Assembly (NCBI GenBank): GCA_000934665.2
Contig: JYFJ02003733.1
Span: 1-38,314 of the forward strand
Direction: 5' to 3'
DNA length: 38,314 nt
Source of the DNA: Catajapyx aquilonaris
Taxonomy: Eukaryota
Shown: positions 7,233 to 37,861 of the stretch, one piece after another
Numbering within the stretch: the first letter of the stretch is position 1
How the letters are laid out: each line of letters starts with the position of its first letter
Position numbers and translations under genes: made by a program
Notes under the pieces: generated by a model
What the model was told of the DNA's origin: nothing
Databases searched by the model: none
The model's input: the letters and a program-made list of their open reading frames with translations, nothing else

Positions 7233-7474
7233 ATTTTAATCCTATATGAATAATACGGGATCAACTACATATTTGCCGCCTAAAACTGTTCCAGCATTTT
7301 CAAAATAGCAGAAATATTCCAAGTTGATTCCAATGTCTCGTAACGAGACATTTATTAAGTCCGACGAGCCCCAGGCCTATCAACTTGGAATATTTCTGCT
7401 ATTTTGAAAATGCTGGAACAGTTTTAGGCGGCAAATATGTAGTTGATCCCGTATTATTCATATAGGATTAAAAT
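7233..7474. repeat. Perfect 96-bp inverted repeat with 50-bp spacer (young MITE/foldback of unassigned family)
   Basis: 7233-7328 is the exact reverse complement of 7379-7474; spacer holds a small hairpin aatgtctcgt-a-acgagacatt (7332-7352). Confidence 0.9.
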
Positions 7475-9447: not shown

Positions 9448-9639
9448 GGCGACACGGTGGCGGAGTGGTTAGCGCCGCAACCTTCCACCTCTTAGGTCCC
9501 GAGTTCGATCCCCGAATCGGACAGATGATACTTATGTGGATAGAGCTTCGATGGGTTCTCTCCGTGTTCGCGTGAGTTTTCTCGGGGTTCTCCCAATTTC
9601 TCCTAATATCAAAATCCATCACAGCAAAGGCAATGATTA
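9448..9639 (+). mobile_element. tRNA-derived SINE, family A (V-SINE-like), 3'-truncated
   Basis: A box TGGCGGAGTGG, B box GAGTTCGATCC, V-domain-like GTTCTCTCCGTGTTCGCGTGAGTTTTCTCGGGGTTCTCCC; similarity to the 10160 copy stops at aatgatta, followed by a short family-B-like head fragment (9640-9670). Confidence 0.85.
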
Positions 9640-10159
9640 GGGAGGCATGGTGGTCTGGTGGTTACGCCACTGGGCAGAAGTGCACTATGCACCAATTTGT
9701 GCCCCCCCCCCCCTCCCACACCACCCCCATTTTTCTCGCCCAATTCATGACCGCCTATGGAAGATGTTAAATAACAAGAATTCAAAACATGTAGCATAGT
9801 AATAACCACTTTGGCAGCACTTCCTATCCTTATTTAACAACCTGTAGTGAGGTGAAGGCCAGTGTTGAGTTGGTTCTCAATAGATAAATAAGAGTGTCAA
9901 GTGCTGCATAGCCACAGTGTAATATGGGGTGAAAAGTGCCAATATCTTTAAGAGCAGAGTTTCGTTACGAAATTTTTTACACGTTTATTTTAAAATAGGG
10001 ACACAGTTTGAAGGTTACAATTAGTAATTGAAGATGTCCTTTTCCTCTTGTGAATGTTTGTTATAATAGTACCGATGCATTTAAACTTTAAAGAGTTAGT
10101 GTCGGTGTCAGAAATTGGGGGCTGAAATCTGTCATTTTCCACTTGATGACACCCTTATA

Positions 10160-10424
10160 TAATATAATATAATATAATGGATACCCCGTGTAGGCCCCTT
10201 GGGCCTCTTAGGGGATCATCTTTTGAAAACCCGACTTTAATCATTTGCCTGAAATGTGATGGATTTTGATAGTGGGAGGAAACGGGAGAACCCCGAGAAA
10301 ACCCACGCGAACACGGAGAGAACCCATCGAAACTCTATCCACATAAGAATCCTCCGTCCGACCCGGGGATCGAACTCGGGACCTTAGAGGTGGAAGGCTG
10401 CGGCGCTATAACCACTCGGCCATC
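10160..10424 (-). mobile_element. tRNA-derived SINE, family A (V-SINE-like), copy with intact 3' tail and TSD
   Basis: A box TGGCCGAGTGG, B box GAGTTCGATCC, V-domain-like GTGGGTTTTCTCGGGGTTCTCCCGTTTCCTCCCAC, (TTATA)n tail, perfect 15-bp TSD gatgacacccttata at 10145-10159 and 10425-10439. Confidence 0.92.
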
Positions 10425-10700
10425 GATGACACCCTTATAGAAAGAGTGTTTATTTGCATTCGAATTGTTACATTTACGTAGTTTTATGATTATGAAAAGG
10501 ACCTAAACGGAACATCGATGAATAGCCTTTTCAGTCGTTTACGATGATCGGATCCAATTAATGACACCCTCTGTCATAAACAAGATGTTAAGCTGTCAGG
10601 ATTCGGTATTTCATGCGTTTTCGAGACACACTGACATTTTTTGGACTTTTATTTCTAACTTAGCTTTTTGCCGATGCACCGTGCAATGTACCATACAATA

Positions 10701-26281: not shown

Positions 26282-27049
26282 TATATTACGTTGATTCATT
26301 AATAAAATCAATGCCCCTTGAGGTCAGACAAATTGAACCAATAGCACTAGAAAGCCTTCTGGTCATGTGTACCAAATTTCATCTTGCCAGGAGGGGTTAA
26401 ATAGTGCAATGATGTATAACTTGAAGTCAGAAGTGATCTCTTTAGGTCATAATAAAACACCGTATTTCTTGATGCCATGCAACACATAGTTAGACACTGC
26501 ATTTTCCCACAGCCAACAACTTTTGCACATAGTTGCAGATTATTGCAAATTCCTGCACAGATCCCATCAAATATCCCAGACCCACAAGAGCAAGTAGCAT
26601 GATCAGAGTGCCTTCTAGTCAGCTATGGAAAAATTGCAAACTGAAATGATACCTGACATGACGGGAGATGGTATGAAGTTTTGTTATAAAAGAACCAACC
26701 TAATATTTTCACAAAATACCACCTACATCTGAAGCTAAATTTGTGATGCCATGCAAACAAAATATAATTCTTGAGAATGGGACACTTAAGAGTAGCATTC
26801 AACAAAATATTTGAATGCCTGTGTGCAATAACGAGGTAAGTTCACTTACCTTCTGTTAAATAGAAGCACTTTAATATATTAAAGTATAAACCTTGACATT
26901 ACTACTAAAGAGTTACAGTTACCCCACGATAGGCCTGTGGTACTTACATGATACTCTTTTAAATATCTGACATTACTTAACCACTGTGCTGCTATGGACT
27001 TTGATTGTGGAAAACAACAGACTAAAAAAAAAAAAATCATGCCAGCAAA

Positions 27050-27150
27050 AAGAACACTGCAACTGTACCCACATGAGAACATGCCCTCAGTCAGTCCTGG
27101 GGATTGAGCTTTGGAAGACTGGCACTAACCACTACACCATCATGCTCTCA
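27050..27150 (-). mobile_element. Old fragment of tRNA-derived SINE family A head
   Basis: Minus strand TGGTGTAGTGGTTAG A box and decayed B box GCTCAATCCCCAGG. Confidence 0.45.
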
Positions 27151-27170
27151 TTACAAGGCATTTATAACTA

Positions 27171-27690
27171 CACTGAACATCAAAAGTTAAAGTAATGTTC
27201 TTTGGGGCTCTCCTGTGAATGGATCACTTGGCCGAAGTAGATGAAAATCGGTACAGGTCACTTACAGGTGGTCCAAAGTGAAACTCTGAGAGGCCCACTC
27301 CCTTTGGCTCAGGGGGATTTTCATGAGGGCAAGAACAGGGTGGTACAATGCTGGCCATATATCGAGGCAACCGCCAGCGACATTTTTCCGAAGCGGCAGA
27401 AGAAGGAATAGAAGATAAGCATGCTACAAGCCGGGCGAGCAAGATTCCTTCTTCTGCTGCTTCGGAAAAATGTCGCTGGCGGTTGCCTCGATATATGGCC
27501 AGCATTGTACACCCTCGGCCAACTCTCGGCCAACTCTCGGCCACAGGGACTGGGGCTCTAAAATTACACTCTGGACCACCTCTAGATGTGGGTCGGAACT
27601 AGACCTGTACTGATTTTAATCCACTTCGGCCAAGTAGTCCTTTCAGAGCAGAGTCCCAAATAACATTACCCTAACTTTTGATTTTCAGTG
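27171..27690. mobile_element. Tc1-type foldback MITE (CACTG...CAGTG, TA flanks)
   Basis: CACTGAA(C/A)ATCAAAAGTTA termini; imperfect arms of about 130 bp; TA at 27169-27170 and 27691-27692. Confidence 0.85.
27346..27507. mobile_element. Young palindromic TA-flanked MITE (162 bp) nested in the 27171-27690 element
   Basis: 64-bp arms (27346-27409, 27444-27507) with one mismatch, CpG-rich, TA on both sides. Confidence 0.9.
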
Positions 27691-28369
27691 TAGTACATTA
27701 CTTGGCAGCCCGAGGGATTTCTAGGTCCAAAACATGTGTACAATGTAAGGGGTGAGAAATGTCACAATGTCAACCATAATGTCAACAATGATAGTTGTTT
27801 ATACATAGTCAGTGTACTCATGTATTGCTCTGTAGGCAAGGCTTACCTATGTAATATGTGTGGATCAAGTTACTTGTTTATCTTGCACATGACTTGAGGA
27901 ATCTGGTACATAGTAACTAACACCATAACACAGACAGCCGAAATACCTACGATGCTATAATACCTACATACCAGTACCATATCTATACTATAGATGCATA
28001 TTGTAAGCAATCCCTCGAAGAAGGGAGGTAGGAGATCGAATTTGGCAGGGGTAGGGGCACGCTGTACCAACATAAGCCATGACCTAACTGTACTTCCTTG
28101 CAGATCCGTGACTATCTTTCAGCAGATACAAGCCTAGGAAAGTAGGTAAAGTGCAGGGATCTCCTGATATGAAAGCGTAGCCTCTTTAAAACCTGGGGCG
28201 GATTAAACAAGTCGAACATCTAAGCATCATTTTTGTTGTATAGTGCAGTGAATGTATTATGAGAGTTTAGGTATTAGGTGAATCAAATGAAACCTGTTCT
28301 TGGCGTCAGGAGAAAATACTACTGAACGCAGGAACTTGAAATTTCTATCACAGCAAGGTGGTACCAAAC

Positions 28370-29997: not shown

Positions 29998-30204
29998 CTC
30001 GGCCTGAAATGTGAGGCAGGCAACAATGCAGGCAACAAGATTACCTCCAACAAGATGGTGGACGCCTGACATTATTTGAACTAATTGTCGCCCAGTTGTC
30101 ATTATTGGTTGTTGTCCCAGTTGCTAGACAACTGTTAGAACAACAATATTACCTCCAACAAGATGGCGGCTACCTCAGCCTGTCTAATGGAAAAGGATAG
30201 GGAG
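29998..30204. mobile_element. 207-bp insertion with TA duplication in the left arm of the 29950-31166 foldback
   Basis: Uninterrupted arm reads GGAGG-TA-CAGTGCCG; interrupted arm reads GGAGG-TA-[CTC...GAG]-TA-CAGTACCG; internal direct repeat ATTACCTCCAACAAGATGG twice. Confidence 0.75.
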
Positions 30205-30515
30205 TACAGTACCGTGCACAATAGCATATAACAAGTGTAAACAACGGCTTTGGCGTTACCTGGCAACTGGGCGTGTTCGGACATCGGCATGTGGAGAGTG
30301 CTTAGCGTTCTTTCTGTCGTTGCCACTGTTTACAGGTAGCGATTGATTGGGAGTGGATGACATTCAATGTGGACCTTATATTAAATTGGCAGACAAGAGC
30401 ATGTACCGGACTCCTTCCCGATCATTCAGTAACTCCATGCATCCTGACTCATACTGGAAAGTGATGATAATAGTGTGATAATAACAAAGCGCCTCCTCAA
30501 AATAATATCCCCCTC

Positions 30516-30832
30516 AGTGGGAAGGTGAAGTGGCGCAGCGGTAACGCTATTAATATTATTATTAATATTAAGGTCCCGGGTTCGATCCCCACCCGGGGTC
30601 CCCACCTTTATCCGTGCAGAGTTGGGCCATCGCTGGCTTCATTTCGGGTGGCAATTTCCGATAGACTAAGCCACCCGGGGGAGTTCACAAAATGACCGTT
30701 AGAGACATTGCACTTGCACTTTGCGCACCCCCTCCTACCTACCCTGGAGTAATTAAATAAGATCTTCTTATATGGCTCCAATTTCAGATGGTGGTAATCC
30801 ACCCCCCTAAAGGATATGGTAAATCCCAATGG

Positions 30833-30896
<64 letters not shown>
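30516..30896 (+). mobile_element. tRNA-derived SINE, family B, with (AAT)n tail
   Basis: A box TGGCGCAGCGG, B box GGTTCGATCCC, body homologous to the 36470 copy, (AAT) about 20 units at 30835-30895, TSD atatccccctc at 30505-30515 and 30897-30907. Confidence 0.88.
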
Positions 30897-30897
<1 letters not shown>

Positions 30898-31274
30898 TAT
30901 CCCCCTCCGACCCCTTATTCCGATGCCATGCATTGGTAAGCATGCACACACCCTTCGCTATAGGTCGCCCAGCATCAATCGCTACCTGTAAACAGTGGCA
31001 ACGACAGAAAGAACGCTAAGCACTCTCCACATGCCGATGTCCGAACACGCCCAGTTGCCAGGTAACGCCAAAGTCGTTGTTTACACTTGTTATATGCTAT
31101 TGTGCACGGCACTGTACCTCCTCTAGGTATTATATTATATAATAGCAGAACTCTTTGATGTGCACTTATAAATCTGCCACATTCTCTCAATGAAAGGGTG
31201 TAATGTGTATTGCTGCATGTGTATAGGGGCAGGCCAATGTGTGTGGTGTGTATGTCTGGTTGTGTACCGTGTTA

Positions 31275-35551: not shown

Positions 35552-35926
35552 CTGTAACAAAAGAAACAGGTATGTTACTATCAATGATTAAATTAGCAAT
35601 GCTACAGCCAATATTACAAAGCAAACACTGCAGTGAATCTAGGGGACCTCAACCAGTCCAAGAGCTGTCATAAATCAACAACTGTCCCACTGATGGTACA
35701 AGATGATGTTCAACCTTGGTAGGCACACTGGGGGTGTTTCATGGGTCATGACAACTAACTTATCAGATCTCTTCAGATATTCTCCTACACATAAGGTGAC
35801 AAGTCTCGCAACCTAATACAGGAAAACCTGCCCAATACGGACCCTGGGTATAGCGGAAACCACGGTCTTACAAGAACACTCGCCGCCATCTTGTGTGCCA
35901 TTATTCCTTCCTGCAGCAGTGCTAAT

Positions 35927-36277
35927 TTTTAAAACAATTTATTTATTTATTTAACCCTGTGATGACCTTTATAGGTTCTATAGGGGGGTGGTACACCACC
36001 ATTTTTCCTAAATTTTCTAAGTTCATGTCACTCCGGTGCAGGGAATCAAGGAGATTGGGTAAGGATAAGGATTTTCGGGGAGGGGAGACAGGTGCAGGTG
36101 CAATGTCTCAAGTTTGGGCCATGTGCAGTCTCCCAGGAGGTTAGGTTGCGAGACACCTCCAAGGTGCAGGTCCGAGACCCTCCCGACGCAGGTGAAAGGG
36201 AACTCTCAGGCAGGGATAGAACCTGGGACCTTTCACTCAGCAAGCCGAGACGTTACCATCCGGCCACCACACCTCCC
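35927..36277 (-). mobile_element. tRNA-derived SINE, family B-related, with (TAAA)n tail
   Basis: Minus strand GGGAGGTGTGGTGGCCGGATGGTAACG head, B box GGTTCTATCCC, shared GAGACATTGCACCTGCAC motif; decayed TSD cagcagtgctaat (35914-35926) / cagtggtgctatt (36278-36290). Confidence 0.82.
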
Positions 36278-36469
36278 CAGTGGTGCTATTATATCTGCAA
36301 TGGAATCCCTCGCTGCATCATAAGTTCAGCGCCCCTTACGGCACAACTATGCACTAACACCTAGAGTGTGACCTAGAGCTAGGTGTTAGTGCATAGTTGT
36401 GCCATAAGGGGCGCTGAACTTATGATGCAGTGAGGGATTCCAGTGCAGATATATTAGCACCACTGCAGG

Positions 36470-36805
36470 GAGGCGGAGTGGTGCTGCGGTAACGTATGCG
36501 CCCACGGATGTTAAGGTCCCGGGTTCGATCCCAGCCCGGGTACAACCCCTTCATCTTGTGCAGAGTTCATTGGGTCACCTCTGGCTTCGTCTCGGGTGGT
36601 ATTTCCTACAGACTAAACCACCTGGGGGAGTTCACTAAAAATGGCCACATAAAGACATTGCACTGCACCTTGCACATCCCCTCCTGTCATCCTGCCCGTG
36701 GGCCCGGGCGTTACGTATAAAGGTTCCGATGTATGTATGAGTATAAAATAAAGGTCCGTGCTATATACCTCAGATGAGGTCAAGCACTACCTGGATTATT
36801 ATTAT
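36470..36805 (+). mobile_element. tRNA-derived SINE, family B, with (ATT)n tail
   Basis: A box TGGTGCTGCGG, B box GGTTCGATCCC, perfect flanking direct repeat tatattagcaccactgcagg at 36450-36469 and 36806-36825. Confidence 0.92.
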
Positions 36806-37861
36806 TATATTAGCACCACTGCAGGAAGGGATAACTTTGCAGCTTTTTCTATTGGCCTGGGATAGATGTGTCCCCTGGCTAGTGGAAACCTATCCATTAC
36901 GGAAATTTTTCTGCGAAAGGGGCATATGCATAAAGAATGGAATGTGTTTTTGATGGTTATTATGAAACCTGTCCAAAGTGGAAACGGAAGGAACTTTTGG
37001 CTCCCTTTGGAGAAAATCTATGTTCATTATGAAAATCATAAGGTTGAGATTATCTCTTGAGAGTCACAACTACAGCCAGGGTCACTCTCGGCCCTCCCAG
37101 GAGACCTGGGAGTAACCCTTTCTGGACCATCCAACACCTTACTGTGTCTCAGAATCGCAGGAATTGCTACCTGCCCATGGCCTTGAAGATAAGGTGAGAA
37201 AAGGGAACTATTTTTGGTTGGAAAATGGAGAGACAGCTTAAGGACACCCAAGATGATTGACTCGTGATTCGTAGGTGACCTGGCTTCAAGTTTAGTTCAC
37301 TGTTCAGTCCAGTTTTAAAATGTAAAAGGAAATGGTTGACACAGGCTCAACATATTGCCCATGTCCAGGCCGATGCTCCAATAGAGCAGGAAAAATGAAT
37401 AGCCCAAAAACTTGGTGGCAAAATTTAGTGCTTCAAATGGGTGGGTGGCTGGAAAGTTTCTGCAACAGGCACAGAATTTCGCGGAAAACACATGTGTGGT
37501 GATGTATGTGTCGTGAATCTCAAAGTAGAAAATTGGAAGAAGTGGGAAGCGATGTTCAGGGTATTCCAAGTAGGACATTTTCAACTGCATTTTTGAGATG
37601 TGCTGTACGCCAGGCAAAACAGACTATTCCACAATAATGCTACTTTATGGACTCATTTTGCACCATATTGAGGTAAGGCTGGTGCTTATTATTTTCAGCT
37701 CTCCCATTTTCCTCTGTGTCATCTGGAAAAAAAAAAAAAAGTAATGTCCTTGACCTGAATATAGCGGAAACCTATCCATTAAGGAAAATTTTTGGGGTCC
37801 ATATGATTCCCCAATCCACAGGTTTCACTTAATTTGAAGGTAATATTTACAGACCCTACAG

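Follow-up and report, generated by a model that had tools for sequence, protein, structure and literature searches.

Why should two different short interspersed elements (SINEs) lie at mirror-image positions in the two arms of a single palindrome? The question arises in a 38,314-nt stretch of the genome of Catajapyx aquilonaris (contig JYFJ02003733.1 of assembly GCA_000934665.2, positions 1 to 38,314 of the forward strand), which was analysed at its full length and which we call the window. Between positions 35901 and 36834 it contains a palindromic repeat with one SINE in its left arm and another in its right arm. A first-pass annotation, made from the letters of the sequence, had proposed that the endonuclease of a long interspersed element (LINE) prefers this repeat, read there as a MITE family (miniature inverted-repeat transposable elements), as a landing place. 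We found that the two inserts are independent insertions from two different SINE families. Their coincidence is probably the product of an ordinary nested double insertion, in which generic nicking at A/T runs is combined with the symmetry of the palindrome.

If the two inserts are removed, each together with one copy of its target-site duplication, the region 35901-36834 is reduced to a near-perfect palindrome of 215 nt, in agreement with the hairpin of about 210 bp described by the first-pass annotation. The outer arms (35901-35926 and 36809-36834), each 26 nt long, show 88% complementarity, and the inverted alignment ends exactly at 35901 and 36834. The 215-nt model is predicted to fold into one DNA hairpin at -112.5 kcal/mol. 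The repeat has the following parts in the window:

35901..35915, no strand: left outer end of the palindromic (foldback, MITE-like) repeat, which pairs with 36820-34
36278-36465: inner palindrome, with arms 36278-36364 and 36379-36465 of 87 nt each that are 95% complementary, and a 14-nt spacer
36824..36834, no strand: right outer end of the palindromic repeat, placed by the inverted-repeat and fold evidence

Both SINEs have their heads toward the centre of the palindrome, and each lies within its own target-site duplication of 12-15 nt:

35912..35926, minus strand: left SINE target-site duplication, 3' copy, ATTAGCACTGCT; decayed, overlapping the outer arm, with 2 mismatches to the target 17-mer
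35927..36278, minus strand: left SINE, 352 nt, with a transfer RNA (tRNA)-like head, a B-box-like motif, a body, a 3' stem module and a (TAAA)n...AAAA tail
36279..36293, minus strand: left SINE target-site duplication, 5' copy, with the A/T run of the left arm; ATAATAGCACCACT, read directly
36453..36467, plus strand: right SINE target-site duplication, 5' copy, ATTAGCACCACTGCA, with the A/T run ATATATTA just before it
36468..36808, plus strand: right SINE, 341 nt, with a tRNA-like head, a B-box-like motif, a body, its own 3' end and an (ATT)n tail
36809..36823, plus strand: right SINE target-site duplication, 3' copy, with 0 mismatches

The right SINE follows ...GATATATTAGCACCACTGCA and begins with GGGAGGCGGAGTGG...; its B-box-like motif GGTCCCGGGTTCGATCC lies at 36515-36531, and its 3' end is a CCTCAGATGAGG stem with the (ATT)n tail. 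The left SINE follows ...GATATAATAGCACCACT, begins with GGGGAGGTGTGGTGG... and has its B-box-like motif, GGTCCCAGGTTCTATCC, at 36214-36230 on the minus strand. On the right, the duplication ATTAGCACCACTGCA is perfect over 15 nt and sits inside a 24-nt direct repeat (36450-36473 and 36806-36829) that is 96% identical. On the left, ATAATAGCACCACT and ATTAGCACTGCT differ by 3 mismatches in about 14 nt; the inverted repeat 36278-36293 pairs with 36806-36821. In the two arms, the duplications of both SINEs start within about 2 nt of AT^ATTAGCAC. The sequence thus confirms what had been described, namely one target shared to within about 2 nt, with a duplication for each insert, decayed on the left and perfect on the right. 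With up to 3 mismatches allowed, the window contains the target 17-mer 3 times, where chance would give 0.10, and all 3 are the copies described here.

An alignment of the two inserts shows how little they have in common. The heads align with 67 identities in 93 positions, a stretch that includes the shared target, and one further motif of about 30 nt aligns with 27 of 33. The bodies and tails do not align, and the 3' 150 nt of the two inserts show no significant similarity, with 25 of 200 shuffles reaching the score. This is the pattern that had been reported, a common head and one internal motif joined to different bodies and tails. The left insert finds no other match in the window, while the right has a second copy of its type at 30565-30736, 79% identical over 180 nt. 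Both inserts carry the marks of LINE-mediated retroposition, namely the duplications and the simple-repeat tails, (ATT)n on the right and (TAAA)n on the left. Both are short, non-coding and high-copy: the open reading frames (ORFs) that overlap them have no Pfam match, and they occur in hundreds of contigs with different flanks. Prokaryote genome contigs scanned with a 22-nt word from the SINE body gave 0 matches.

Copies elsewhere in the genome were examined in four public runs from one sample, which may be the source of the window itself. The runs were used as assembled contigs, in which rare variants are dropped, and the contigs were placed on 35700-37030 at 80% likeness or more. The results refer to the best-supported contig rows; 23 joints, 1707 loose ends and 190 letter rows lie beyond these. 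Against a summed depth of 19-33 in the unique flanks, the right SINE (measured over 36465-36734) reaches 0.9-6.1e5, or about 6,000-20,000 times the unique depth, and the 5' half of the left SINE (36105-36284) reaches 1.3-3.0e5, a thousands-fold excess that falls within the same range. The 3' part of the left SINE is lower, at 1e3-2.7e4. Genomic copies of the right SINE begin their alignment at 36467 or 36468 (108-113 and 191-201 contigs per run), and the end of the left SINE head is set by 57-70 contigs per run that run into A/T-rich flank.

The hairpin is far less abundant. For its inner part the depth sums to 243-1037, where unique sequence gives 19-33, which corresponds to roughly 10-30 copies. 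Of the copies that could be read, one lacks both inserts and another lacks the right one. The first is a 643-nt contig (depth 11-23), which spans 36286-36473 of the inner palindrome with 18 other letters and 15 gaps. In it, 35915 and 36286 are joined across 6 letters, the distance that a left site with no insert should give, and the alignment carries on through 36473, as it would over an empty right site: the hairpin continues with CAGGAAGG, while the SINE begins with CAGGGAGG. At least one other copy of the hairpin is therefore empty at both sites. The commonest variant, a single contig at depth 390-463 (about 15 times unique), is empty at the right site, because its inner arm runs directly into 36806 (joints 36319->36806 and 36424->36806). 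This variant supplies most of the depth of 508-595 just outside the palindrome, at 36836-39.

Because each family is high-copy alone and has its own boundaries, and because hairpin copies elsewhere are empty, we conclude that the two inserts are independent insertions, as the first-pass annotation had argued. The alternative is that one ancestral SINE entered one arm, that an inverted duplication of that arm then made the palindrome, and that divergence or partial replacement followed. Such a history would account for the alignable heads with their shared target and for the fact that both heads point to the centre. It does not account for bodies and tails that fail to align, for two inserts that each fit a separate high-copy family, or for two duplications that are unlike in length and decay. 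In addition, the right body has its counterpart in the separate copy at 30565-30736, with none in the window for the left SINE, and hairpin copies elsewhere have complete arms free of any SINE. A copied arm is excluded, and the chance that its elaborated form holds is negligible.

We also considered whether the locus is an assembly artefact, with repeats mis-joined at SINE or hairpin sequences. No single listed contig extends across the entire stretch, and breaks between contigs fall within the repeats, as a mis-join might lead one to expect. Nevertheless, 35700-35999, which comprises flank, outer arm and left SINE tail, is matched with 0 differences by a 2,825-nt contig at unique depth, and 36886-37030 is matched by a 351-nt contig, again with 0 differences; this agreement is to be read with the possibility that the runs are the window's own source. 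Each insert has matching duplications, and the arms pair outer with outer and inner with inner, which is unlike a mis-join. An artefact is accordingly very improbable. The same 2,825-nt contig, being at unique depth and without differences, shows that the composite is single-copy; it is not a unit recurring elsewhere in the genome, a case that the first-pass annotation had set against its own reading.

The left insertion is probably the older of the two, because of the mismatches in its duplication (3 in about 14 nt, against 0 in 15 for the right) and because it differs from its family majority at more positions (at least 13 among the rows listed, against at least 6 for the right copy). This ordering, which is drawn from sequence decay, agrees with the different ages proposed earlier.

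Why, then, did two independent insertions come to the same site? LINE endonucleases usually prefer to nick short A/T runs. In this palindrome, ATATATTA in the right arm and its counterpart TATTATAT in the left arm are the only A/T run of at least 6 nt per arm, and both insertions start there. The coincidence of position is explained by generic nicking because the site is the sole such run in each arm, and the mirrored position and orientation are explained because the palindrome shows the same nick site on opposite strands. For the window as a whole, A/T runs of 8 nt or more number 264.

The sequence of events would be as follows. A low-copy palindrome of 215 nt would have taken two insertions, separated in time, through ordinary target-primed reverse transcription. 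The endonucleases encoded by the LINEs that presumably mobilise these SINEs would nick short A/T runs and, with one such run per arm (ATATATTA), would have had little choice of site. The palindrome would present the same nick sequence on opposite strands, so that the hits would be mirrored in both position and orientation with no special mechanism. The common start of the duplications, AT^ATTAGCAC, would mark the first-strand nick, and the 5' junctions, which are 3 nt apart, may reflect second-strand breaks at slightly different distances.

Insertions elsewhere show a similar preference. In each run, about 300 other contigs carry the right SINE; their 30-nt 5' flanks are rich in A/T and reach an agreement of only 0.37-0.40. 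The flanks of the left SINE (the 57-70 contigs per run already mentioned) are A/T-rich as well. The second right-type copy (30518-30899) has an unrelated duplication, ATATCCCCCTC, after AAAATA, again with an A/T start, and a SINE of a third family at 10165-10428 has the unrelated duplication TAAGGGTGTCATC after TTTCTA, also with an A/T start. A check of the SINE flanks for a sharp target, which the first-pass annotation had proposed, thus returned only a generic A/T-rich pattern.

A chance resemblance was set aside at this point. The target AGCACCACT and the sequence AGTGGTGCT, in the head of the right SINE, are reverse complements of each other, and the hairpin arm might on that ground be derived from a SINE head. 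When the arm was compared with 5 SINE heads in both orientations, the score of the 9-mer was reached by 21 of 300 shuffles, and the best of the 10 tests by 5 of 300, so we rejected this origin as being at chance level.

Several points weigh against an ordinary double insertion. Two SINEs in one 215-nt element is a rare event, with a chance of about 7e-4 per element; this estimate is based on A/T runs, a plain Poisson calculation for 215 nt agrees with it, and both use the density of the window, 7 tRNA-head SINE-like copies in 38.3 kb. The two first-strand nicks are no more than about 2 nt apart, and both inserts face the same way with respect to the hairpin. The fill state of the 10-30 hairpin copies, moreover, rests on the best-supported contig rows, and all four runs represent one sample in the form of contigs from which rare variants have been dropped. 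The locus was, however, chosen for its two hits from among 821 windows of the genome that were screened. With that number of windows, and with inverted repeats as dense as they are here, one such case is expected: the window holds 70 inverted-repeat pairs of at least 22 nt within 1.5 kb, and a third SINE lies inside an element at 30199-31122 whose terminal inverted repeats have 149-nt arms that are 97% complementary.

The main competitor is a genuine hot spot, in which TAT^ATTAGCACCACTG, or the base of an extruded hairpin or cruciform, would attract LINE endonuclease or priming above other A/T runs. Copies of the hairpin would then be hit repeatedly by several SINE families, in a weak form of the preference that Tx1-type LINEs show for DNA transposons. 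Two independent insertions do lie within a few bases of one another at equivalent sites, with overlapping duplications, which is one mark of a hot spot, and a double hit on a single copy, at sites no more than about 2 nt apart, has a low prior chance, which speaks for this view. So does the use of the same site by two families with different 3' ends. The right SINE has an (AUU)n tail that is complementary to the 3' end of the nicked bottom strand (...TAAT), a match that may be relevant. Against this, the 643-nt copy and the commonest variant (390-463 of a depth of about 510-600) are empty at the site, the flanks of the SINEs elsewhere are generic A/T, and the copy in question, the only one known to be filled, was picked for its double hit after 821 windows, from which a one-off is to be expected. 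The site is also about 12-27 nt from the stem base, whereas a single-stranded loop would be central.

Since the hairpin is present at about 10-30 times the unique depth and the SINEs at about 6,000-20,000 times, fewer than 1% of the copies of either family can lie in hairpins. A single special enzyme is not indicated either, because the two inserts carry different 3' modules. Taken with the generic flanks, these results do not support the proposal of a LINE endonuclease that prefers this MITE family. We consider a genuine hot spot of this kind unlikely, and we would place the reality of even a modest local one at a similarly low level. The broader claim, that in this genome an A/T run near the stem base of a foldback or MITE is a recurrent, structure-assisted landing site for target-primed reverse transcription and that palindromes collect SINEs of several families at fixed mirror positions more than equal A/T runs in ordinary DNA do, seems to us more doubtful still.

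Kojima (2015; PMC4494074) calls a non-LTR (non-long terminal repeat) family target-specific if a single sequence makes up more than 20% of the flanks; the depth ratio given above leaves both of our families below 1%. The same study describes crocodilian SINEU elements in Mariner-N4_AMi, where 90% of SINEU-3 (313 of 347), 23% of SINEU-1 and 13% of SINEU-2 are found, a preference shared by Tx1-Mar LINEs, and it describes Tx1 itself in the piggyBac-type Tx1D of Xenopus (PMC4494074). Our locus resembles the Tx1-Mar/SINEU system in that a retroposon occupies a fixed place in a DNA-transposon-like repeat, and in that more than one SINE family has used the same place. It differs in that less than 1% of each SINE family can lie in the hairpin and other flanks are generic A/T. 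It differs too in its surroundings: a Pfam search of the 102 ORFs of at least 70 amino acids in the window found no transposase and no reverse transcriptase, and there is no LINE in the window, of the Tx1 type or otherwise.

Another parallel may be the SINE hot spots that Cantrell et al. reportedly described in 2001 in the mys retrovirus-like element. Comparable cases are the CanSINE loci 133135 and 212075 of Felidae, for which the relevant section of PMC4084570 describes independent SINE insertions at one site and attributes the hot spots to the sequence preference of the LINE endonuclease. As in these examples, we see independent SINE hits within a few bases, partly from different families or in different orientations, with overlapping duplications. 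Here the sites are paralogous mirror sites in one palindrome of one genome, whereas there they are orthologous sites across species, and only two events are known here.

The nature of the hairpin itself can be narrowed down to some extent. It is a non-coding, low-copy palindromic repeat, which may be MITE-like and is not a proven MITE. Like foldback and MITE-like repeats, it is a near-perfect palindrome, non-coding and multi-copy, in which the whole 215 nt serve as terminal inverted repeats, and it has a possible TA...TA flank. Its ends can be read as TA, then TTCCTTCC...GGAAGGGA, then TA, although the same TA is also present inside the palindrome (TTAT...ATAA). It is unlike such repeats in having only about 10-30 copies and in that the abundant variant extends beyond the right end, where it keeps aligning for at least 31-35 nt past 36834 (positions 36836-39 included). 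The immediate flanks, 35790-35880 and 36835-36914, are repeated too, with a summed depth of 430-1820 against 19-33 for unique sequence, or 25-60 times. Because the abundant variant aligns beyond 36834 and the flanks are repeated, the palindrome may belong to a larger repeat and not be a self-contained MITE. No vacant insertion site of the hairpin itself was seen in the contigs of the four runs.

Two ways of extending the element into its flanks were tried and rejected. An inverted extension fails because the inverted alignment halts at 35901 and 36834, and a direct extension fails with an alignment score of 31, where shuffles have a mean of 27.6 and a maximum of 47. A joint from 35861 to 36906, with 16 letters between, a shorter side of 24 letters and a depth of about 20-40 in 3 of the 4 runs, is probably a split alignment from a short GGAAACC match.

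A search of the whole window against Rfam yielded no family at its gathering score. Within 35880-36860, the sole matches are sub-threshold ones to microRNA (miRNA) precursors, at up to 41.3 bits against thresholds of 70-100. Several miRNA-precursor models match the inner hairpin (36318-36425) on both strands, led by mir-253 with 41.3 bits, where the gathering score is 72. The matches represent a generic hairpin signal and are no evidence of a miRNA gene at this position. A metagenome scan with a 19-nt word from the hairpin arm returned 3 loci, each with 19-22 nt in common with the window; these are chance matches, and none is a copy of the hairpin.

The SINE families resemble other tRNA-derived SINEs in their general plan. 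Such SINEs have modular bodies and LINE-like 3' tails that end in short repeats, as set out in the SINE passages of Kojima (2015; PMC4494074). The present inserts likewise have a tRNA-like head, a B-box-like motif, a shared body motif, exchanged 3' modules, simple-repeat tails, duplications of 11-15 nt and about 1e4 copies. The 17-mer pattern around the B-box-like GGTTC(G/T)ATCC matches the window 6 times at up to 3 mismatches, where 0.35 matches are expected, and both inserts match it with 0 mismatches. They differ from typical tRNA-derived SINEs in that no tRNA model fits their heads: ARAGORN found no tRNA in the SINE heads, and Rfam gave no tRNA match there at E values up to 1.

The copy at 30518-30899 shows how the parts of these families are combined. 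It lies in the interior of the element with terminal inverted repeats at 30199-31122, an element of about 532 bp with possible TA flanks and a non-palindromic interior. The duplication of this copy is ATATCCCCCTC, its (AAT)n tail runs to about 21 units, and its head is interrupted at about 30549-30570 by an A/T-rich stretch of 21 nt. It shares head and body at 79% with the right SINE, yet it has the 25-nt 3' stem module of the left type. This module, ATGGTGG...CCACCCCCCTA, is common to it and the left SINE but is not shared by the right SINE, and none of 200 shuffles reached the score. The motif AGACATTGCAC is common to all three SINEs, at 35927-36278, 36468-36808 and 30518-30899.

Elsewhere in the window, two SINEs of the third family, with tRNA heads, lie inverted at 9455-10428 with their tails facing; their arms (9470-9633 and 10245-10408) match at 89%. 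In the minus-strand copy the tail is (ATATT)n and the duplication is TAAGGGTGTCATC; in the plus-strand copy, a head like that of the left SINE (GGGAGGCATGGTGG...) breaks the sequence at about 9640. A further, truncated copy lies at about 330-450 on the minus strand, beside a poly-C/G run with an N at 292. Two other near-perfect palindromes were noted, one at 7233-7474 (96-nt arms, 100% complementary, 50 nt between) and one at 27343-27510 (67-nt arms, 99% complementary, 34 nt between). An ORF at 26971-27192 on the plus strand has a weak match to vitamin K epoxide reductase (VKOR, PF07884; E 0.0047, 17.5 bits, below the cut-off of 27.5) and could be an exon or a chance match; it adjoins the palindromes at 27167-27694.

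If a hot spot were nevertheless real, the locus would add another case of retroposons that prefer a DNA-repeat structure, a result of moderate interest because the targeting of Tx1 and of Tx1-Mar/SINEU has already been described. If the ordinary explanation is true, the locus is of value only as a clean example of how an endonuclease with a generic preference, acting on a palindrome, can give the look of "mirror-image targeting", and of how the sites of SINEs inserted independently can agree to within 2 nt. The latter calls for caution when the presence or absence of a SINE is used as a homoplasy-free marker. The locus also shows that SINE families in this genome are mosaic, with 3' modules exchanged between them.

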